Origin: Oscillospiraceae bacterium
Lineage (GTDB): Bacteria > Bacillota > Clostridia > Oscillospirales > Acutalibacteraceae
NCBI GenBank assembly: GCA_902796055.1
Contig: CADBNM010000073.1
Coordinates: 1-47,404, forward strand
Direction: 5' to 3'
Length of the DNA stretch: 47,404 bases
The translations under genes were made by a program, and so were the position numbers. Shown piece by piece: positions 4,853 through 47,127 of this stretch (positions within the stretch are counted from its first letter, which is position 1; the number at the start of each line of letters is the position of its first letter). A model generated the notes under the pieces. The model was not told where the DNA came from. It saw only the letters and a program-made list of their open reading frames with translations, and made no database searches.

Positions 4853-6364
4853 ATGGATAAGAAAACCGTTTTGCTCACAGGTGCTTCGGGCACTATGGGC
4901 TGGGAAGGCTTTAAGCAGCTTTACCGCAGAAGAAATAAGTTTCATATTGTTCTTTTGCTTAGGGAAAGCCCGAAAAATCTTATTAAGTTTAAAAGATTTT
5001 TAGATGACCCTAATGTAACAATAGTATGGGGCGATTTAACCGATTATAATTCGGTTTTGGAAGCCGTAAGCGGCGCCGATTATATCCTTCATGTTGGAGG
5101 TATGGTTTCTCCCGCAGCCGACTATTATCCCAAGAAAACAATTTATACAAATGTTACCGCTGCCGAGAATATCGTTAAAGCGGTAAAGGCTCAAAAAGAC
5201 CCCGATGCCGTTAAGGTTGTATATATCGGCACCGTTGCCGAAACAGGCGACAGAAATCCGCCTATACACTGGGGTAGAACGGGCGACCCGATTAAAATCA
5301 GCGTCTATGACCACTATGCGATTTCGAAGGTTAAGGCTGAGGCTGTTTTCGCCGAGTCAGGACTTAAATATTGGGTGTCGCTCAGGCAAACGGGTATTCT
5401 TTATCCTGAAATACTTAAAAATATGGATCCGATTATGTTCCATGTGCCGATTAACGGCGTGCTCGAATGGGCTACGGTTGAAGACTCGGGCAGACTGCTT
5501 GCAAATGTTTGTGATTATGATTTGCCGGAAGACTTTTGGCGCGGTTTCTATAATATCGGTTCCGGCGCTTCTTACAGACTTACCAACTTTGAGTTTGAAG
5601 AGTATCTTTTGGGCGCTCTCGGACTTCCGAGCACTAAAAAGTTATTTGAAGCTAATTGGTTCATTCTCAGGAACTTCCACGGTCAGTGGTACACCGATTC
5701 CGATAAACTTGAAGAGTATCTCCATTTCAGATACAATGTGCCTGTTGACAAGTATTTTGAAAACCTTGCTAAGCAGGTTCCCGCTTATTACAGAGCCTGC
5801 CTTGCGCTGCCTAAGTTTATGGCAAACGCCGTAGCGGCAGCAGCAAAACCGTTTATGAAGAAAATCGCTCAAACCGAAATTTACGGTACGCTTAACTGGC
5901 GATTGAAGAAAAATCGTGACAGAATTACCGCTTATTACGGCTCCGTTAAAAACTGGAAGGGCATAGGCACTTGGGAAACCTTCAAGGTTGAAAGACCGAG
6001 CGAAACTCCCACTTATCTTGACCACGGTTACGATGAGGCTAAGCCTATTGAAGAACTCGATATTGAAGATATGAAGAAAGCGGCGAAATTCCGCGGTGGC
6101 GAGTGCGTATCCAAGGTTATGGTTAAAGGTGATATCTATACGCCTCTCGTTTGGAAGAGCGCAAGAGGTAATGTCTTTGAAATGTCGCCGAACCTCGTTC
6201 TTAAAGGCGGTCACTGGTGTCCCGAGGAACTTCCTTGGCCGTGGGATTATGATACCGAGGCTAAGATTAATCCGTTCTTCGCTCAGGTTTGGTATCCGCT
6301 TCACGATAAGAACGAAAATAACTTCTACGATGAGAGAATATTTAAAGGATTTGAGGACTTTTAA
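4853..6364 (+). CDS. NAD(P)-dependent epimerase/dehydratase-fold (extended SDR) protein with a ~190-aa C-terminal extension
   Basis: Rossmann motif LLTGASGTMG and SDR-like YAISK. The C-terminal part (KFRGGECVS...GGHWCPEELPWPWDYD) is not assignable by eye. Confidence 0.8.
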   Translation: MDKKTVLLTGASGTMGWEGFKQLYRRRNKFHIVLLLRESPKNLIKFKRFLDDPNVTIVWGDLTDYNSVLEAVSGADYILHVGGMVSPAADYYPKKTIYTNVTAAENIVKAVKAQKDPDAVKVVYIGTVAETGDRNPPIHWGRTGDPIKISVYDHYAISKVKAEAVFAESGLKYWVSLRQTGILYPEILKNMDPIMFHVPINGVLEWATVEDSGRLLANVCDYDLPEDFWRGFYNIGSGASYRLTNFEFEEYLLGALGLPSTKKLFEANWFILRNFHGQWYTDSDKLEEYLHFRYNVPVDKYFENLAKQVPAYYRACLALPKFMANAVAAAAKPFMKKIAQTEIYGTLNWRLKKNRDRITAYYGSVKNWKGIGTWETFKVERPSETPTYLDHGYDEAKPIEELDIEDMKKAAKFRGGECVSKVMVKGDIYTPLVWKSARGNVFEMSPNLVLKGGHWCPEELPWPWDYDTEAKINPFFAQVWYPLHDKNENNFYDERIFKGFEDF

Positions 6365-12410: not shown

Positions 12411-12683
12411 GGGGGTGCGAATGTGTCGCCCGGCAGCGCTGTGCGCTGAGTGATATTCGCCATCGGCGAGTGATATATTGCTACGCAATGTGATATTGTG
12501 CTTCGCACAGTAATATTCGATTTCTAAGAACTCGAGTTGAGGTGGCGGAACAAAGTTTCGCAATTTAAATCGGGTGAGGGCAGAGCCCTCCATTAACTTT
12601 TGCGAAGCGAAAACATCATTTGCGCTTTAGCGCATACATCATTACACAAACTGTAACATCACTTGCCGCAGGCAAACATCACT
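12411..12683. repeat. hairpin-array repeat family, copy B (two opposed arrays around a GC-hairpin core)
   Basis: Left array: 9-mers AGTGATATT / AGTGATATA / TGTGATATT / AGTAATATT at 12449, 12469, 12489 and 12509 (exact 20-nt phase), separated by 11-nt palindromes. Core AAATCGGGTGagggcagagccctCCATTAACTT at 12568-12599. Right array: AACATCATT / TACATCATT / AACATCACT / AACATCACT at 12612, 12635, 12655 and 12675. Confidence 0.85.
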
Positions 12684-14939: not shown

Positions 14940-15789
14940 AATTATTAAACCCGCGCCCTAATATTTCTCTTGCATCGACAAGGGTAATAAAGGCGTTCTC
15001 GTCATTTTCATAAATAACCTTGTATATTTTAGATATTTCGTTTGAGCGAACAGCGATAAACAGCATTGAGCGTGAGGCTTTCGTGTATGCGCCGATAACC
15101 GGCACTATGGTAACTCCGCGCTTAACATAACTGTTTATTCTTTCGCAGATAATATCTTTTTTGTCCGTCACAGCCAAAAGCAGTTTCCCGCTTTTTGAAC
15201 CGTAAATTATATAGTCAATAATATTTGCGGAAACAAATATCATAACCACCGAGTATAAAACGCTTTGCGCGCTCTTATAAACTATTGCCGACAGGGCTAT
15301 AACCAAGCCGTCAGCCGCCATAATAACTCTGCCTACGGAAATGTGCTTGAACCTCATTGAGACTAGCTTGGCAATAATGTCCGTGCCGCCCGTGCTTGCA
15401 CCTCTTATAAAAATAAGCGATAACCCTATCCCCGAAATAACGCCGCCTGCGAGCGCCGCAAGCACCGTGTCGCCTTTAAAGTGGGGAAGATAAGGCGCAG
15501 ATAAATCAATTAAAACCGACATTAGCGCAGTTGCTATAGCCGATTTAATTATAAACGCCTTGCCGATTATTTTGTAACCGATAATGAAAAGCGGCAAATT
15601 GAGCGCGAAAATGAGCGCGCCTACAGGCAAGCCGAAAAGATATTTAATTATTATCGCTATGCCCGAAAACCCGCCTATAACGAGTGAATTCGGTTCGATA
15701 AAGCAGTTTAGCGCCACCGAATAGACGGCGCACCCTGAAAGATAAAACAGAAAATCTATCGCTATTTCTTTTGCTCGCTTTTTTGGCAT
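14932..15789 (-). CDS. YitT-family membrane protein (DUF2179 C-terminal domain)
   Basis: Multi-TM N-terminus with GGFSGIAII / GGTDI motifs and a soluble C-terminal domain, typical of YitT. Confidence 0.85.
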   Translation of the reverse strand: MPKKRAKEIAIDFLFYLSGCAVYSVALNCFIEPNSLVIGGFSGIAIIIKYLFGLPVGALIFALNLPLFIIGYKIIGKAFIIKSAIATALMSVLIDLSAPYLPHFKGDTVLAALAGGVISGIGLSLIFIRGASTGGTDIIAKLVSMRFKHISVGRVIMAADGLVIALSAIVYKSAQSVLYSVVMIFVSANIIDYIIYGSKSGKLLLAVTDKKDIICERINSYVKRGVTIVPVIGAYTKASRSMLFIAVRSNEISKIYKVIYENDENAFITLVDAREILGRGFNNYE

Positions 15790-16166
15790 ATCAGGGAGTA
15801 AATCTCCTTTATTCTGTCATATTTGCGCGACAGATATAAATAGCCGAAGAGCGTTTCGAATCCCGTAGCGTAATGATAATCTCTTGAAGAAGCATTTTTT
15901 GGAGTGTGCGATGTTGCGGCATTTCTTCCGCGCTTAAAAACGCTGAGTTCTTCCTGCGTGAGATTATCCATAATGCTTTGTATCGCTTTGTATTGGCTTA
16001 CGGCGCTAACCCTGCCCGCGCAGATTTTATGTAGCTCATTTGCTTTTTTATCGCTTTCGAGCGCAAGCTCCTCGCGCACAATCAGGCTGTAAACCGCGTC
16101 GCCTACAAAAGCGAGCGTTATCGGGCTTAAATTGTCAGGATTAATTTTGGTATCGTCAAAAATCAT
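15762..16166 (-). CDS. mrnC: Mini-ribonuclease 3
   Basis: LAFVGDAVYSLIVRE RNase III-like signature; ~134 aa. Confidence 0.9.
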   Translation of the reverse strand: MIFDDTKINPDNLSPITLAFVGDAVYSLIVREELALESDKKANELHKICAGRVSAVSQYKAIQSIMDNLTQEELSVFKRGRNAATSHTPKNASSRDYHYATGFETLFGYLYLSRKYDRIKEIYSLICQKSEQKK

Positions 16167-36965: not shown

Positions 36966-37901
36966 ATGTTAAAGGAAAAGGTTTTAAAAATTTTAGCTGA
37001 GAATAGAGGCGAATGTCTTTCGGGACAGTCTATTGCCGCAGCTTGCGGCGTGTCGCGAAACGCAGTCTGGAAAGCGGTAAACGCCCTGCAAAAGGAGGGC
37101 GTAGGCATTGTGTCGCTCAAAAATAAAGGCTATGCTTTGAGTGAAAACGCGCTTTTAGAAAGCGACATAACTCTCCCCGAAAATACCCGCTTTTTTCTGT
37201 ATAACAGCGTCGACAGTACTAATAACGAAGCAAAACGCCTGCTTGCAAAGGGCATAAAGGAAAACGCCGTTATTATAGCGAATGAGCAGACGGCGGGCAG
37301 GGGAAGGCTCGGCAGGGATTTTTATTCGCCTAAGGATACGGGACTTTATTTTTCCTATCTTTTTCACCCGAATAAATCCCTCTCCGATACCGTTTTTATC
37401 ACCACTGCCGCGGCGGTAAGCGTGGTAAGGGCGATAGAGAAAATAAGCACTTTAAAGCCCGAAATCAAGTGGGTAAACGATGTTTATCTCGGCGGCAGAA
37501 AAATCTGCGGAATACTCACCGAAGCGATAAGCGACTTTGAAAGCGGCGTTGCCCAGAGCGTAATCGTCGGTATAGGTATAAATGTAAATACCGCCGATTT
37601 CCCCGAAAGCATTGAGAAAACGGCGGCAAGCCTTAATGATAAAAGTATAACAAGACCCAAAATCGCACAGGCGCTTGCAGATGAAATCATAAAAGTAGCG
37701 CATGATTTGTCAGCGCCCGATATTTTGGAGGACTACCGAGCACACTCGCTCGTACTCGGCAAAAAAATAACCTATATCAAAAACGGCGAAACTTTCACCG
37801 CCATAGCCGACTCCATCGGCGATAAAGGTGAACTGATAGTCAAAACCCCAACCGGCGACCACCAAACTCTCTCCTCGGGTGAAATTTCTGTAAGACTGTA
37901 A
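36966..37901 (+). CDS. birA: bifunctional biotin-[acetyl-CoA-carboxylase] ligase / biotin operon repressor
   Basis: N-terminal HTH (SGQSIAAACGVSRNAVWKAVNALQKEG), the GRGRLGRDFYSP ligase motif and KWVNDVY. Confidence 0.93.
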   Translation: MLKEKVLKILAENRGECLSGQSIAAACGVSRNAVWKAVNALQKEGVGIVSLKNKGYALSENALLESDITLPENTRFFLYNSVDSTNNEAKRLLAKGIKENAVIIANEQTAGRGRLGRDFYSPKDTGLYFSYLFHPNKSLSDTVFITTAAAVSVVRAIEKISTLKPEIKWVNDVYLGGRKICGILTEAISDFESGVAQSVIVGIGINVNTADFPESIEKTAASLNDKSITRPKIAQALADEIIKVAHDLSAPDILEDYRAHSLVLGKKITYIKNGETFTAIADSIGDKGELIVKTPTGDHQTLSSGEISVRL

Positions 37902-37941: not shown

Positions 37942-40917
37942 TTATAGCGTTGTAATTGTCTTAACATCACTCCAAGGACCTACCACTAATTTTCCGCTGA
38001 ATGTGTAATAATATTCTCTTGCTCTTACATAGTATGTTCTTCCGGAGCCCCACTGGTCAGCATGCATTACCGAGCCATTTTTTCGGTAAGTAATGCATAT
38101 GTTATTACCTTTGTTTGAAAATGCTTTATTATCACTTAATTGCATTTGGTGGTTGGTAGAACGGTTAAACTTAATATCGAACTTGCCAAAGTCGAGATTA
38201 ACTAATTTAACTATAGGTTTGTTCGGTTTCGTATACTGCCAGCTCTCATAGTTTTTACTGCCGTCGTTCCAATATACTTTATTGCCCACCTTTTTATAAG
38301 TCCTTATACAGTAGTCAACAAATACATCTGATTTTGACAATCGCGGAATAATCATGGAATTTTTAGTGGTGTTTTTGTATTTTACCCATTTGTGTTTACT
38401 GTTGTTATACCTGTAAACCGCATAACCGCTTACATTTTTAGCCTTAGCCCAATTAACTTTAATTGATGTCGCCGAATAACTGACAGCTTTTGCACTTACA
38501 ACAGGTGCAGGTCTTATCTGTAAAGTCTTTTTAATTGTACCGCTGTAATTGCCTTTAAACTTTATTACTATTGTGTAATTACCCACATTTTTGTGACCGC
38601 CCGAAATAGTTATGTTGTAATCCGTCCCTTTTTTATAGTTTGCTTTAAGATAATAATCTTGCAAACCGTAAGAAGTCATAGCCTGTTTGTGGTCGTAGTA
38701 ATACGGCACCGGCACAATCGCTTTGCCTGTATATGAGCACACAGTATCCAAATAGCAGTTTGTAAGTTTTTTAGGCGAGATTTTAAATGTTTTGCTCATA
38801 CTGCCTTCGTACATATCACCTTTGAAAGTTACTGTCACTTTTGCCGTGCCTGCATTTATATTGTTGCTGTAGGCTACAGTGTAATTTGAACTGTCAATAA
38901 CACTTCCTGTGCTGTCTTTCACAGTAACGGCAGGCTTATTTGCTTTGCCCGAATAAGTGTAAGTGCTCTTAGACAATACAATATTTTTCGGTGCGTATAT
39001 TATTGAAGTCGAGCCTTCTGCGCCACAAACCGAGCATTTGGACTTTATTATTTTGCCGTTTCTTTGGTAAGCCGCTTTTGTTTTAATAATGTTTGTAGAA
39101 TTATAACTGTGCTCCGCAAGCGGCAGGGATTCTGTGTAATAGTTATAACAGCGAGAACAGGTATAAGTATTTTTACCCCTTGTAGTACAAGTTGAATAGG
39201 TAGTGCTCGTTTTTTGGTAGTTGTGACCCAAAGCGGCAATATCTTCATAATAACTATTATCACAACGAGAACAAGTATATTTTTGTTTGCCTTTTGAAGT
39301 GCAAGTGGGATTGGTTGTAACTACAGCATTGTTGTAACTGTGACCTAAAGCGGCAATAGTTTCTCCGCCGTAACTGTCACCACAGCGAGAGCAGGTGTAT
39401 TTATCTGTTTTACCTGTTTTAGTGCAAGTAGCGGCAAAACCCGCAGTTTTAATATAATCGTGACCTAAAGCGGTAATAGTTTCTCCGCCGTAACTGTCAC
39501 CACAGCGGGAGCAAGTGTATTTATCTGCTTTACCGGTTTTAGTGCATGTGGCGGCAGAACCCGCAGTTTTAATATAATCATGACCTAATGAGTTTGTATA
39601 ATCATCTTTGTAAACATCAGAGCACCTTGAACAAGTATAGGTAGTATAGCCTTTTTCGGTGCATGTCGGGGCAGTAATAGTTGATTGATAATCGTGACCT
39701 AATGCTGCTTCGGTTTCTTCTTGCTCTATAAAAATCGTGCCACATGCTTTACAATGACTGCCTTGTGTAAGCCCGCTTTTGGTGCAGGTCGGCTCCGTAG
39801 CAACATCTATTTCTTCAACATGATTGCAAATATAATTGCGGTTGTATTTTTTTGCATATTCATAAACATTTTTCGAACCGTTAATTATAATAGTTGTGTT
39901 TTTGGGAATTGTATCCGCCAAATAATAAATACTGCAGTTTTCGCTTTTAATATCAATGCTTGATAATTTACTGCAAGCGTAAAATACATAAGCACCAATA
40001 CATGTAACAGAATCTGGAATTGTGATGCTTACCAAACTGCTACAATCTTGAAATGCATAATGATTAATGGTTGTAACTGAATTCGGAATCGTTACGGTTG
40101 TCAAACCGCTACACCATTCAAATGCACTATGACCAATGTTTGTGACTGAATTCGGAATCGTTACGGTTGTCAACCCGCTACACCATGCAAATGCACCTTT
40201 TTCAATGCTTGTAACAGAATCGGGAATTGTTACACTTGTTAAACCGCTACAAGCGCAAAATGCATAATCGCCTATACTCGTTACGCTGTCGGGTATTGTC
40301 AATGTTCCTGTGATTCCACTGCAACATCTAAAAGCAGAATCACCAATGCTTGTAACAGAAGCCGGAATAGTGATATTTGTCAAACTCCTGCAACCGTAAA
40401 ATGCATAATTGCTAATGCTTGTGATAGAATCTGGAACCGCTATTTCTGTAACTAATTTTCTATTAAGATATAGGGAGGCTTTGTTAGTATAATAAAAAGG
40501 ATTTGCATACTGCCCGTCAAAATCTATTTTACACCAAGATTCAATGCTACTAATATTTATCTCTGCTAAATCATTATTATCTTCAAACGCATATTTACCA
40601 ATACTTTTTATAGTATCGGGAATGGTGATGCTTATCAAACCACAATCTTCAAACGCACAACTGCCAATATGTGTTACACCGGATTCAATGATTACTTCTT
40701 TAATGTTAGTTCTAAAAAACAGACTACCATATGATGAATAATTATACATTTCACCGCTACCGCTTATTATAAGCGATTTTGTAATGGAATAAAAAGTATA
40801 TGTGACATTATCGCCGCATTTACCACTACTTGACAAAGCATTAGAAGTTATTTGCAGTCCTGCAAAGGTGCTGCAAATCATTACGATTACTAAAATAACA
40901 CTTAATAATCTTTTCAT
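37942..40917 (-). CDS. large secreted surface protein: BspA-type leucine-rich repeats, six to seven Cys/His modules, MBG-like Ig modules and an Fn3-like domain
   Basis: Signal peptide MKRLLSVILVIVMICSTFAGLQITSNA. About nine ~23-aa repeats IPDSVTSIGxxAFxxCSGLTxVT. Modules PTCTxxGxxxYTCSRCxxxY...LGH. YTYSGKANKPAVTV...NAGTAKVTVTFKG. Fn3-like SIKVNWAKAKNVSGYAVYRYN. ATG 40917 with an AAAGGAGA SD overlaps the upstream stop as TAATG. Confidence 0.85.
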   Translation of the reverse strand: MKRLLSVILVIVMICSTFAGLQITSNALSSSGKCGDNVTYTFYSITKSLIISGSGEMYNYSSYGSLFFRTNIKEVIIESGVTHIGSCAFEDCGLISITIPDTIKSIGKYAFEDNNDLAEINISSIESWCKIDFDGQYANPFYYTNKASLYLNRKLVTEIAVPDSITSISNYAFYGCRSLTNITIPASVTSIGDSAFRCCSGITGTLTIPDSVTSIGDYAFCACSGLTSVTIPDSVTSIEKGAFAWCSGLTTVTIPNSVTNIGHSAFEWCSGLTTVTIPNSVTTINHYAFQDCSSLVSITIPDSVTCIGAYVFYACSKLSSIDIKSENCSIYYLADTIPKNTTIIINGSKNVYEYAKKYNRNYICNHVEEIDVATEPTCTKSGLTQGSHCKACGTIFIEQEETEAALGHDYQSTITAPTCTEKGYTTYTCSRCSDVYKDDYTNSLGHDYIKTAGSAATCTKTGKADKYTCSRCGDSYGGETITALGHDYIKTAGFAATCTKTGKTDKYTCSRCGDSYGGETIAALGHSYNNAVVTTNPTCTSKGKQKYTCSRCDNSYYEDIAALGHNYQKTSTTYSTCTTRGKNTYTCSRCYNYYTESLPLAEHSYNSTNIIKTKAAYQRNGKIIKSKCSVCGAEGSTSIIYAPKNIVLSKSTYTYSGKANKPAVTVKDSTGSVIDSSNYTVAYSNNINAGTAKVTVTFKGDMYEGSMSKTFKISPKKLTNCYLDTVCSYTGKAIVPVPYYYDHKQAMTSYGLQDYYLKANYKKGTDYNITISGGHKNVGNYTIVIKFKGNYSGTIKKTLQIRPAPVVSAKAVSYSATSIKVNWAKAKNVSGYAVYRYNNSKHKWVKYKNTTKNSMIIPRLSKSDVFVDYCIRTYKKVGNKVYWNDGSKNYESWQYTKPNKPIVKLVNLDFGKFDIKFNRSTNHQMQLSDNKAFSNKGNNICITYRKNGSVMHADQWGSGRTYYVRAREYYYTFSGKLVVGPWSDVKTITTL
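39340..39579 (-). repeat. two tandem 120-nt near-identical repeats inside the surface-protein CDS
   Basis: 39340-39459 versus 39460-39579 differ at about 8 positions by my count. Each encodes one GHDYIKTAG.AATCTKTGK.DKYTCSRCGDSYGGETI.AL module. Confidence 0.9.
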
Positions 40918-41519
40918 TACTTTTTCTCCTTTTTCCAATTATCAAAGTCATAGGCTAATTTACTGCCTTTGTCTTTTGTTAAAAAACCTATTATTTTTTG
41001 AACATCATTATATTGTTCATTCTCAATAGATGTCCAGTGTATGTCATTTTCTCTGATTGCAATCAATGTTTTTTCTTTAATTCCACATTCTTTAGCGAAT
41101 GAGTTGGGCAAATCTTTAACATCTTCAGCCAAACAGTCTAAAATAGTGCTGTCAAGCGGACAGTCGCAATATTTCTCATCAATGTCAATTATATGCCCCT
41201 CGTATTTGTTCAAAACAACCAAATATTTTAAACTCATATTCACCAATTTTTGAATTGCACCAAATTCAACATTTTCATATTTGGTCTTTAAACACTTAAT
41301 AAATCTTTTTGATGATTTTGTTTGACCATCATTTTTTCTAATTAAATCGCACAGTTTATTTATCAACGCCCTATTTTGCAAAATGTAAAAAGGCAAGTGA
41401 AACCTACCTGTAAGCACATCTCTATGTGCTCGAAAAACACAATCGTAAATCCTATCTTTATCTTTGTGTTTAGGTATGACACTAACTGTTAAAAACTCAC
41501 TCATTTTCTTTTCATCCAT
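40917..41519 (-). CDS. hypothetical cytoplasmic protein (200 aa), no family recognised
   Basis: ATG 41519 (MDEKKMSEF) is preceded by GGAGGTG. No signal peptide or TM segment. Motifs GAIQKLVNMSLKYL and CDCPLDS. Translationally coupled to the LRR protein. Confidence 0.7.
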   Translation of the reverse strand: MDEKKMSEFLTVSVIPKHKDKDRIYDCVFRAHRDVLTGRFHLPFYILQNRALINKLCDLIRKNDGQTKSSKRFIKCLKTKYENVEFGAIQKLVNMSLKYLVVLNKYEGHIIDIDEKYCDCPLDSTILDCLAEDVKDLPNSFAKECGIKEKTLIAIRENDIHWTSIENEQYNDVQKIIGFLTKDKGSKLAYDFDNWKKEKK

Positions 41520-41716
41520 AAAAACACCTCCAAAAATCAAAAATGGCGTACAGCCGAAGCCATACGCCCAAAAACGCAAGCTCGGTTGTCGCCAAACAAT
41601 TACACATATAACGCTACCGATATAGTATGCAAATCAGAGCATGCATTTTTATCAAGATAGATAAAAATAGCATACCTAATCAGTAGCAAAAATATTCACT
41701 TGTGTAATTATTTGGC
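41520..41716 (-). promoter_or_regulatory. structured 5' leader L1 (nested helices P1-P4 plus UUCG-loop intrinsic terminator)
   Basis: Minus-strand pairings: P1 41716-41701 / 41606-41591 (16 bp), P2 gcuacug / cgguagc, P3 gguaugc / gcauacu, P4 auuuuuauc / gauaaaaau. Terminator ggcguauggc-UUCG-gcuguacgcc (41568-41545) plus AUUUUUGAUUUUU lies directly before the SD. Confidence 0.6.
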
Positions 41717-41722
41717 ATTTTT

Positions 41723-41752
41723 ATTCTACCATATATTATTATAATTAGTCAA
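41723..41752 (-). promoter_or_regulatory. sigma-A-type promoter driving leader L1
   Basis: Minus strand: TTGACT (41752-41747), 18-nt spacer, TGgTAGAAT (-10 at 41728-41723). Confidence 0.6.
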
Positions 41753-41849: not shown

Positions 41850-42392
41850 TCACTTTATATATTTCCTCAGCCTTTTTGCGAGCAGTATCGCCATCGCCAT
41901 TTTAATAGCGTCGGGCAGGATAAACGGGAAAACGCACCAGCCGAGCACCGTCATTAGCGTTACTGCGCCGTTGGCTTTAATATACAGATACATAAACCAA
42001 GCCGTGCCGAAGGCGTAGCAAATTAAAAGTCCCAAAACAAGCGAGATAATCTGTATATGCAACTTTTCGCCGAAAATCGAAGTGAGCAGCCAATAAATCG
42101 CGCCGAGCAGTATAAAGCCTAAAATGTAGCCGCCCGTGTTGCCTGCAAGCACTCCTATTCCGCCCTTAAAGCCTGAAAAAACCGGAATACCTGCCGCGCC
42201 GAGCGCGATGTAAACCAAAATCGAATAAAAGCCGTTTCGCCCGCCGAGCAGTGTAAGCGAGAGGAAAATGGCGAGCGTTTGCAGGGTAAAAGGCACCGTC
42301 GTCGGTATGCTCACCCAAGAAAAAAGTGCGATTATCGCGCTGAATATTCCTATATATGCAATATCTAAAGGTTTAAATTTTTTCTCTTTCAA
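41850..42392 (-). CDS. bioY: biotin transporter BioY (ECF S-component)
   Basis: Six-TM protein with the GGYILGF motif typical of BioY. TTG start at 42392 after GGTGA. A BirA operator lies upstream. Confidence 0.88.
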   Translation of the reverse strand: MKEKKFKPLDIAYIGIFSAIIALFSWVSIPTTVPFTLQTLAIFLSLTLLGGRNGFYSILVYIALGAAGIPVFSGFKGGIGVLAGNTGGYILGFILLGAIYWLLTSIFGEKLHIQIISLVLGLLICYAFGTAWFMYLYIKANGAVTLMTVLGWCVFPFILPDAIKMAMAILLAKRLRKYIK

Positions 42393-42496: not shown

Positions 42497-43012
42497 TTAC
42501 TTCTTTTTTCTCTTAACAAGCCAATTTATCAGAAACACTAAAGCAGTAATACAGCAAGCGTAAGTCAAAATATTTTTCGCCGCGCTTACCGCGCTTGCCG
42601 CTGGAATAAATTTATCCGTCTTAAGCATTATAATACTTAAAACATCCTCTATAACATCAACTGCAAACAGCGCAATCGGCAGAAAAATGAGTTTATATCC
42701 GATTTTATTGAGCTTTATAAACAGCCCTAAAAACAGGTAAGTATAGGCGAACATAAACACAAAGTCAAGCGCAATCGCGGCGTAAAAATATGTTTTTCCC
42801 GTAGCGGTAATATTTTGTATAAACTGCTCGCCGACTGCCTTCGGGTAAGCGAACGCCTGCAAATCAAAAGCCGCTATGCCTCCCGCCGCCGCTTTAACTG
42901 CGGGGAAGAGGAAAATATCCATTCCTGCAAGCGCAACCACGCTTACTATCGCGCTTATTATAAGATATTTTTTTGTGCTCTGTGAGCTGAAATATTCTTT
43001 CATTTTAATCAC
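42497..43012 (-). CDS. hypothetical polytopic membrane protein (about 170 aa)
   Basis: Four to five hydrophobic segments and no recognisable motif. GTG 43012 or ATG 43003 are both possible starts. Confidence 0.6.
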   Translation of the reverse strand: MIKMKEYFSSQSTKKYLIISAIVSVVALAGMDIFLFPAVKAAAGGIAAFDLQAFAYPKAVGEQFIQNITATGKTYFYAAIALDFVFMFAYTYLFLGLFIKLNKIGYKLIFLPIALFAVDVIEDVLSIIMLKTDKFIPAASAVSAAKNILTYACCITALVFLINWLVKRKKK

Positions 43013-46304: not shown

Positions 46305-46916
46305 TTACTCGTGCATTTTCTTTGCAGGGACACCTACATATGTTCCTTTTTGTTCAATGCTTTTAACAACCACTGCTCCGGCTCCTATCATACACTCCTC
46401 GCAAATTTTTACGTCGTTGCTTACGGTAGCACCTGCGCCAATCCAAGTTTTGTTTCCTACAGTAACTGTCCCTGCGCATTTTGCGCCTACTGAAATGTGG
46501 ACAAAATCTCCTATCGAATTGTCGTGTTCAACAAGAGCCGAGGAATTGATGATGCAGTGCTTTCCAATTATTGAGTTAGGATTAATAACGGCATTTGGCA
46601 TTATAACGCTACCTTCACCTATAGAGGTATTAATTGAAGATATTACTGCGCTCGGATGAATGGCTGTATACCATTTTACTCCCTGCATTCTCTCTGAGAT
46701 TGCTTCTCTTGCTTTTGCAGAGCCTATGGCGATTATGAAATAGTTTTCTTTATATTTGCGAAAATCAGTATCCTCTCCTAAAATCGGCAGGCTTAAAAAT
46801 TCGCTTCTTTTGTGGTTAGCTTCAAGAAATCCGACTATATGGTCGCCTGACTTTTGTATTATATCGGCAACAACCTTTGCGTGACCGCCTGCACCTATAA
46901 TTACAACCTTTTTCAT
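46305..46916 (-). CDS. NeuD/PglD-family sugar O/N-acetyltransferase (left-handed beta-helix, hexapeptide repeats)
   Basis: MKKVVIIGAGGHAKVVADII N-terminal Rossmann-like domain, followed by hexapeptide repeats (IGEGSVIMPNAVI..IGKHCIINS..). Start set to ATG 46916; the ORF-track extension to 47072 runs through the leader. Confidence 0.88.
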   Translation of the reverse strand: MKKVVIIGAGGHAKVVADIIQKSGDHIVGFLEANHKRSEFLSLPILGEDTDFRKYKENYFIIAIGSAKAREAISERMQGVKWYTAIHPSAVISSINTSIGEGSVIMPNAVINPNSIIGKHCIINSSALVEHDNSIGDFVHISVGAKCAGTVTVGNKTWIGAGATVSNDVKICEECMIGAGAVVVKSIEQKGTYVGVPAKKMHE

Positions 46917-47092
46917 ATCTATAACCGCCTTAAAGAAAAAATGCACAGCCGAAGCTGTGCAAAAAAACACAATGCTCCGATTGCTGCGACACAAATCAAA
47001 TATACGAGCATAAAAGGTATACCAATAAAGAGCATGCATTTTTATCGAAAATACATACCTTATTATGCTCAAAAAAAATATGATTATGTCGC
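46917..47092 (-). promoter_or_regulatory. structured 5' leader L2 (paralog of L1) with UUCG-loop intrinsic terminator
   Basis: Minus-strand pairings: P1 gcgacauaauca (47092-47081) / ugauuugugucgc (46998-46986), P2 gagcauaa / uuaugcuc, P3 aagguau / auaccuu, P4 guauuuu / aaaaugc. Terminator ugcacagc-UUCG-gcugugca (46961-46942) plus UUUUUU. Confidence 0.6.
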
Positions 47093-47098
47093 AACACG

Positions 47099-47127
47099 AT
47101 TATAACATAGTTGAAATCTTTAGTCAA
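47099..47127 (-). promoter_or_regulatory. sigma-A-type promoter driving leader L2
   Basis: Minus strand: TTGACT (47127-47122), 17-nt spacer, TATAAT (47104-47099). Confidence 0.65.

Follow-up and report, generated by a model that had tools for sequence, protein, structure and literature searches.

A family of promoter-leader-terminator cassettes with overlapping alternative helices, apparently new and probably acting as transcription attenuators in Oscillospirales

What is encoded by the structured DNA that lies between a promoter and the Shine-Dalgarno (SD) sequence of a surface-protein operon in an Oscillospiraceae bacterium (contig CADBNM010000073.1 of assembly GCA_902796055.1)? The stretch analyzed, 47,404 nucleotides (nt) in its whole length and called the window below, carried two copies of such a leader, both on the minus strand, and an original prediction made from the letters of the window had proposed a cis-regulatory RNA of no recognized class. 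The ~190-nt leader is apparently a real and new RNA family, which by sequence comparison would lie outside every described family testable here, and each copy is, with a probability of roughly 60%, a self-contained promoter-leader-terminator cassette standing before an SD and serving as a cis-acting transcription attenuator.

In copy 1, a -35 box TTGACT (41747-41752), an 18-nt spacer, and an extended -10 box TGgTAGAAT (41723-41731) were read in the sequence, and the transcription start was predicted at about the first base of the helix P1. The rod that followed was composed of P1 (41701-41716 folding on 41591-41606, 16 base pairs [bp]), the variable helices P2 (41687-41681/41619-41613) and P3 (41676-41670/41630-41624), and, nested inside P1-P3, P4 (41668-41660/41653-41645), which was followed by a 14-nt bulge on the 3′ side. 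Segment a was the U-rich 5′ strand of P4 (AUUUUUAUC; 41660-41668, pairing with 41645-41653); segment b was a conserved core (AAAAAUGCAUGCUC; 41637-41650), of which the 5′ part was the P4 3′ strand and the 3′ part lay in the bulge; and segment c was a linker (GAGCUUGCGUUUUU; 41570-41583) complementary to b (b:c duplex, -14.7 kcal/mol) and more weakly to segment d. Segments d (41559-41569) and e (41545-41554) built the 10-bp hairpin of an intrinsic terminator with a UUCG loop (41545-41569; -15.5 kcal/mol), followed by the U-tract AUUUUUGAUUUUU (41532-41544), the SD GGAGG (41527-41531), and the start codon ATG (41517-41519).

In copy 2 (47127-46916) the parts followed one another as in copy 1: a promoter (47099-47127; -35 TTGACT at 47122-47127 and -10 TATAAT at 47099-47104), a rod (46985-47093; P1 at 47081-47093/46985-46998 and core b at 47030-47043), linker c (GAGCAUUGUGUUUUU; 46963-46977; b:c duplex of -12.1 and c:d hairpin of -4.5 kcal/mol), a UUCG terminator with its U-tract (46932-46961; d at 46954-46961 and e at 46942-46949; -13.2 kcal/mol), and an SD (46925-46931). 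It was matched by the family covariance model (see below) at 46962-47095 with 92.8 bits; no third copy was found in the window by this model with filters off. The 18-mer GATAAAAATGCATGCTCT occurred at exactly two sites of the window (41636-41653 and 47029-47046, both on the minus strand; 0.12 expected). The fold of copy 1 had -73.7 kcal/mol (z = -7.6) and that of copy 2 had -57.7 kcal/mol (z = -5.2), and 0/200 dinucleotide shuffles were as stable in either case. Reading of the minus strand recovered every element that the original prediction had listed for the two copies, including the second copy of the same architecture and the 18-mer common to both. The prediction had missed that the "asymmetric bulge" plus the P4 3′ strand were complementary to the linker over 14 bp and that the linker could also pair with the 5′ terminator strand.

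The extent of the family was addressed with the search pattern AAAAATRYAKGCTC N{40,70} GAGCNNNNNNTTTT, which was built from the copies found at homologs of the gene for a 200-aa protein that follows copy 1, and which was scanned against one genome per species. The letters of core and linker were partly preset by this pattern; the linker position pairing with core position 7 was left free. At least 120 loci matched, and all figures on family members given here rest on the loci obtained from that scan, the earlier loci, and the window and are to be read as lower bounds. Among 128 distinct pattern instances, 113 had a P1 of at least 10 bp at the right place. A covariance model was built from 48 copies and matched at least 132 copies in the loci obtained, some of them diverged and not matching the pattern; the two copies of the window were thus joined by numerous homologs. 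True copies were present in at least roughly 105 Clostridia metagenome-assembled genomes (MAGs) from gut and rumen, nearly all of Oscillospirales type, with hosts including Ruminococcus, Oscillospiraceae, Acutalibacteraceae, Dysosmobacter, Monoglobus, and Ruminococcus sp. CAG:563. A collection of 2.9 million viral contigs held 7 pattern matches, and a phage origin was rejected on this count.

The lack of any known class was confirmed with Rfam 15 (4227 models): at gathering score neither leader had a match, and the sole match in the window was Gut-1 elsewhere (see below); at E<=10 there were only chance matches 60-85 bits under threshold (small nucleolar RNA, microRNA, RyhB terminator, and CRISPR-DR). 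Two known RNAs were considered and rejected: (i) the T-box leader, given that no T-box match was present even at E<=10 and the downstream genes were not aminoacyl-tRNA related; and (ii) 6S RNA, given that no 6S model matched and that the leader was multi-copy and tied to a downstream SD. The motif was not described in the available portions of systematic noncoding RNA surveys, including the Breaker-lab 26- and 50-genome surveys and that of Fremin & Bhatt 2021, an absence that does not amount to proof; nor did the full-text literature yield a description of it by core sequence, by Oscillospiraceae structured RNAs, or by BspA-riboswitch.

Conservation of the rod was evaluated with two alignments: A2, a length-restricted MAFFT seed alignment, and A6, a 109-sequence alignment to the covariance model; these were adopted because MAFFT on all full-length copies misaligned the variable stems. 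Pairing was controlled with shuffled sequences, partners slid out of register, and non-cognate partners. From base to tip, the rod was composed of P1 (~16 bp), a 5′-heavy hinge loop, P2/P3 (~16 bp), a bulge of 13-16 nt confined to the 3′ side, and P4. Every rod (113/113) had z < -3, and z averaged -8.7; the rods held a median of 43 bp in 115 nt. The P1 arms differed completely between copies and yet stayed complementary: P1 was 96.9% paired in A2 (slid controls 37-57%) with compensatory changes at 8/11 pairs, and these rose to 11/11 pairs in A6. P3 covaried in A2 (columns 41-49/93-101), and P4 (a:b) was 97.9% paired in A2 and 96-98% overall, with a C in segment a only where b had a G. Over the whole of A6, which leans towards the model because it was fitted to it, 92.3% of cells were paired (38-54% with partners slid), with double changes at 23/27 pairs and 392 compensatory cells as against 127 in shuffles.

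The compensatory change that had been suspected in P1-P3 from two copies hence held with 48-109 relatives aligned, and covariation stood well above the shuffled and slid controls. The modeled pairs contained 312 G-U/U-G cells and 44 A-C/C-A cells; this excess extends to the whole family the strand-specific fold proposed for the window and means that selection works on the RNA of the transcribed strand. In a fold-back length comparison, the mean lengths of P1 and P2/3 were 15.8 and 16.4 bp and were uncorrelated (rho 0.07). Taken with the terminator and the b:c pairing (see below), P1 and P3 made up a conserved aptamer-like structure backed by covariation. No recurrence nearby of 12-mers from the P1-distal and P2 arms was found beyond low-complexity chance (12/113 loci), and a guide or antisense role of these variable arms was rejected on this ground.

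The leader contained five successive segments a-e, each able to pair with its neighbors only, which gave four overlapping helices a:b, b:c, c:d, and d:e (mean energies of -6.4, -13.6, -7.5, and -15.6 kcal/mol, respectively, with a U-tract after d:e). Core b had the consensus AAAAAURCAKGCUC (P4 3′ strand plus bulge), a 14-bp complement to linker c, GAGCyAUGYRUUUUU. Because b shared AAAAAUR with P4, a:b and b:c were mutually exclusive. The b:c helix was 99.4% paired family-wide; its pair 76/150, where the core position 7 met the linker, was GC in 23 copies, AU in 18, GU in 6, and AC in 1. In 10 divergent copies that only the model had matched, b:c was held at -11 to -15.4 kcal/mol via multiple compensatory changes, for example in AAAAACACGGACUU with AAGCUUCGUGUUUUU and in AAAAGGUGUUUUCUC with GAGGGAUACACUUUUU. 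In 4/6 tandem arrays examined (see below), b paired with its own c at -12 to -14 kcal/mol and with the c of the neighbor at -3.6 to -7.5 kcal/mol, and the b:c pairing was therefore intramolecular; trans pairing of b and c between molecules was rejected on this covariation within units and mismatch between neighboring units.

The c:d helix was evaluated in 59 units with standard terminators, and it was 91.8% paired in one register as compared with 10-53% when slid. Cognate c:d hairpins averaged -7.5 kcal/mol, against -6.2 kcal/mol for non-cognate (p = 3e-6) and -4.0 kcal/mol for shuffled ones (p = 3e-17). A conserved U in d found an A as its partner in c and a G as its partner in e. The terminator d:e was 98.1% paired, with compensatory changes at 7/10 pairs. 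A leader peptide was rejected: the AUG within the core was AUA in about half of the family, and the AUG at the P1 start of copy 1 was not conserved.

Placement relative to promoter and gene was likewise regular. The -10 box lay 4-6 nt upstream of P1 in 65/111 copies; an extended TG was present in 69/111, and the spacer was 17 nt in 81/111. In 73/108 copies, a same-strand SD plus start codon followed the linker by no more than 75 nt (median 53 nt from the linker end), the unit ending 5-35 nt before them. The random placement expected of a mobile palindrome such as a miniature inverted-repeat transposable element (MITE) was not observed. The 98 first downstream open reading frames (ORFs) encoded 15 BspA-type leucine-rich repeat (LRR_5) proteins and 6 XRE helix-turn-helix regulators; 63 Pfam families were represented in all, and many ORFs had no match. 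The genes behind the leader also encoded many signal-peptide proteins and lipoproteins, as well as small proteins, Zn-ribbon proteins, and SLOG/DprA-like and antidote-like proteins. Most operons behind the leader were short (1-2 genes).

Tandem arrays of 2-3 units, with own promoter and terminator per unit, were found in at least 10 loci: L061 (4746-5335), L064 (4513-4937), L045, L048, L074, L089, L092, L107, L110, and L118. Between neighboring tandem units, identity was 0.89 for terminators, 0.76 for promoters, and 0.64 for rods.

The four complementarities are conserved and covary, are mutually exclusive where they overlap, and hold a fixed position with respect to promoter and SD. Two coherent states follow from them, at least as read from the sequence: {a:b, c:d}, which would disfavor the terminator, and {b:c, d:e}, which would favor it. 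Thermodynamics favors {b:c, d:e}, and the co-transcriptional order favors {a:b, c:d}. A relay of four overlapping helices therefore has the logic of a transcription attenuator: a terminator stood between promoter and SD, and c:d was a conserved alternative pairing that sequestered one of its strands. Such alternative pairings would be the logic expected of an expression platform, which supports the original proposal of a cis-regulatory leader with conditional read-through.

We infer control of termination by the relay, and its direction, as follows. The RNA would begin at the first base of the ~115-nt rod, and a decision made at the P4/bulge end would be relayed to the terminator via the linker. 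If core b were held by a or masked, c would be free and could pair with d, so that the terminator would be hindered and read-through would result. If c took over b, starting from the unpaired bulge and driving out a, d:e would form and transcription would stop before the SD. The linker would find a natural toehold in the unpaired bases of the core, and masking of the toehold or stabilization of P4 would give more read-through. The state would be set at the P4/bulge region by a signal or by a factor in trans; as this effector, a protein or other macromolecule is more likely than a metabolite. More tentatively, and as a proposal that may well prove wrong, the cassettes could form a regulon-wide Oscillospirales system, in which dozens of portable cassettes per genome gate BspA LRR, lipoprotein, small-regulator, and accessory genes via one shared signal, with the fold-back rod as a new kind of sensor, its distal bulge captured by the linker (toehold strand displacement), and the diverging stems of tandem units carrying unit-specific information rather than neutral drift.

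Several points weigh against attenuation by this relay. The transcription start, the 3′ end, and the read-through are themselves predictions from sequence. At -7.5 kcal/mol, the c:d helix was weak beside the terminator (-15.6 kcal/mol) and covaried modestly, and it might do no more than delay terminator formation. Core b was located at the far end of a ~32-bp rod, and c began just 6 nt past P1; a straight intact rod would keep the two apart, and a fold-back pseudoknot or a partial opening must therefore be assumed. The invariance of core and linker was overstated in the pattern-derived set because the search pattern had partly fixed both. A nearby SD plus start codon was lacking in 34/108 copies, and tandem units that are each self-promoted and self-terminated are the layout of small RNA genes rather than that of classical tandem riboswitches.

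Four other explanations were compared with the attenuator reading and ranked by confidence in the order of small RNA, LoaP-type recruitment site, riboswitch, and DNA repeat. The unit could be the gene of a stable ~185-nt small RNA acting in trans through protein binding or titration or through base-pairing of its single-stranded linker or bulge, with downstream expression being terminator leakage. Each unit did have its own sigma-70-type promoter and a strong Rho-independent terminator, 2-3 such units were stacked in at least 10 loci, the downstream genes had no function in common, and the linker would be single-stranded between two hairpins in the terminated RNA, with a U-tail after them. We nevertheless hold it unlikely: the 73/108 copies ending 5-35 nt before a same-strand SD and start codon are unlike independent small RNA genes, the position was not independent of the downstream translation start (median 53 nt), the linker covaried with the core of its own unit and not with those of the neighbors and would hence be engaged intramolecularly, the linkage of leader and gene was kept across diverged orthologues, and complementary targets near the units were not found.

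Somewhat less credence was given to the reading that the leader recruits a specialized elongation or antitermination factor, be it a LoaP-like paralog of NusG or some other antiterminator that binds RNA. Such a factor would let RNA polymerase pass the terminator of the leader and those that come after it, and the relay would be secondary. LoaP is known to bind a UNCG hairpin, and the leader in which this hairpin lies contains a NusA-dependent terminator too (PMC12691694). In the dfn and mln leaders of Bacillus velezensis a small separate UNCG hairpin lies upstream of the terminator, and loaP accompanies long biosynthetic operons (PMC12691694). The present leader resembled these in that a UNCG-type hairpin and an intrinsic terminator would form a checkpoint before the first gene: a conserved RNA element preceded a promoter-proximal terminator, UNCG loops were found in 55/110 terminator hairpins, the downstream genes had surface, polysaccharide, and accessory functions, and the conserved core sequence suggested recognition by a macromolecule. 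It differed in that the UNCG loop capped the terminator itself rather than a separate upstream hairpin (P4 loops were not UNCG), that a NusG/KOW domain was found in 0/20 window ORFs scanned (all neighbors of both copies included), that the operons behind it were mostly of 1-2 genes, and that the many copies with short and diverse targets were unlike the one-to-two-operon regulons of LoaP.

A true riboswitch, in which the relay would be shifted by a small molecule or second messenger (e.g., a cyclic dinucleotide) bound to P3/P4/bulge, to the b:c pseudoknot, or to both, seemed to us about as improbable as LoaP-type recruitment. The conserved internal loop with pseudoknot-type long-range pairing beside a terminator/antiterminator platform would suit it, and the many copies before surface proteins would resemble the distribution of cyclic di-GMP riboswitches in Clostridia. 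The NMT1/xanthine and folE/THF-II motifs are rod-like aptamers, and the leader shared with these and other terminator or pseudoknot riboswitches a conserved internal loop in a variable rod and a long-range pairing overlapping the expression platform; unlike them, it had no family match and no coherent gene association, its long-range helix was 14 bp and competed with P4, and its tandem units were each self-promoted. Nearly all conserved nucleotides were accounted for by the four overlapping helices, and few candidates for a binding pocket therefore remained; b:c (-13.6 kcal/mol) was also much stronger than typical ligand-stabilized pseudoknots. The 98 first ORFs did not belong to one pathway or transport function, and the very diverse downstream genes (those for XRE regulators and for small, antidote-like, and SLOG/DprA-like proteins among them), in which no metabolic theme was apparent, argue against a metabolite-specific riboswitch.

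An element acting at the level of DNA (a palindrome of MITE type or of repetitive extragenic palindrome [REP] type, an inverton, or a hairpin site of a recombinase or transposase) was largely refuted and is essentially excluded. It would account for the long inverted repeats, the many copies per genome, the proximity of some to TnpV/DUF4368 mobile-element genes, and an identity between the window and another contig, L001, that begins exactly at a start codon (see below), but not for arms that differ completely between copies with complementarity retained, the preference for G-U over A-C (312 to 44), the orientation fixed relative to promoter, terminator, and gene, or the rarity in viral contigs (only 7 pattern matches in 2.9 million); inversion would also not switch the promoter because the promoter lies outside the repeat.

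With cis-acting attenuation thus preferred, the leader can be set beside known attenuators. The pyr leader controlled by PyrR, among attenuators of the Bacillus type, is built of stacked anti-antiterminator, antiterminator, and terminator helices. The leader likewise had mutually exclusive neighboring helices that ended in a terminator just before the SD and would pass an upstream state down; unlike the PyrR type, it had no sequence or Rfam relation to it, had one more layer, carried its sensor hairpin at the tip of a ~32-bp rod, and served diverse accessory genes rather than one pathway. In the rep leaders of pT181 and pIP501 (countertranscript attenuation) and in lambda PR'-tR', a constitutive promoter yields a short terminated RNA unless a factor intervenes. 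As in these, alternative "preemptor" pairings would decide terminator formation; unlike in these, neither an antisense promoter nor a DNA site of Q type was identified, both pairing partners belonged to one molecule, and the units were chromosomal and multi-copy. The new features are the extra relay layer, the sensor at the rod tip, the portable self-promoted cassettes, and the diverse surface and accessory regulon.

The first gene behind copy 1 (40917-41519, minus strand) encoded the 200-aa protein, which had no counterpart in NCBIfam or PADLOC and for which Pfam gave a single weak DUF4119 match, below its cutoff. AlphaFold modeled it as all-alpha with a predicted local distance difference test (pLDDT) score of 95, and no PDB fold matched this model with E<1; 93 homologs were found, mostly metagenomic. 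The second gene (37942-40938, minus strand) overlapped the end of the first and encoded a 998-aa BspA-type protein (LRR_5, E 6e-72). The leader was kept before orthologues of the 200-aa gene down to ~44% identity; the closer homologs retained it together with BspA LRR genes next downstream, and four contigs with such homologs (L006, L013, L014, and L015) had the same leader type with a P1 unrelated to that of the window and complementary over 16-17 bp. Remoter homologs of 35-40% identity (L003-L005, L010-L012, and L017-L019; gene at 6001 or 4001) were without leader and directly followed a WYL-domain gene or a gene without family match; some of them lay near TnpV or restriction-modification genes.

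The operon of copy 1 was flanked by genes for a BioY biotin transporter (41850-42392, minus strand) and a BirA-type biotin ligase/repressor (36966-37901, plus strand), and it therefore looks inserted between two biotin-related genes. Copy 2 was followed by a gene (46305-46916, minus strand) for a sugar acetyltransferase of the NeuD/PglB/VioB family. L001, from another sample, was 100% identical to the window over 805 nt from the ATG of this gene at 46916 (from 343 in L001); upstream of the ATG it was unrelated, with a membrane-protein gene and a different SD in place of the leader. Unless the short contig is a chimera, the cassette or its neighborhood has therefore been swapped with the start codon as the exact boundary.

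Elsewhere in the window, a 171-aa ORF (42497-43012, minus strand) between BioY and LepA had no match in Pfam, NCBIfam, or PADLOC. A 134-aa protein (15762-16166, minus strand) with a single RNase III domain of Mini-III type is probably a housekeeping enzyme and was noted in view of the long double-stranded RNA that the leader rods form. The Gut-1 RNA (Rfam RF01706) was located at 12448-12521 on the plus strand (61.7 bits, E 6e-10, gathering score 50).

Oscillospirales (Ruminococcaceae, Oscillospiraceae, and Acutalibacteraceae) belong to the most abundant bacteria of gut and rumen and to those hardest to work with, and to our knowledge almost nothing is known about the control of their large and variable sets of BspA-type surface proteins and accessory genes. 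A conserved leader that recurs across more than 100 species, frequently as several copies, and is absent from Rfam gives a concrete, testable handle on regulation in this order. Its anatomy is unusual for an attenuator, with four overlapping helices each backed by sequence comparison, a long rod tipped by the sensor hairpin, and self-promoted stackable cassettes. The compact cassette could serve as a genetic part for Oscillospirales, and once its effector, whether protein, RNA, or ligand, is found, the leader would stand either as an orphan riboswitch class or as an antitermination system of RNA and protein, new in both cases.

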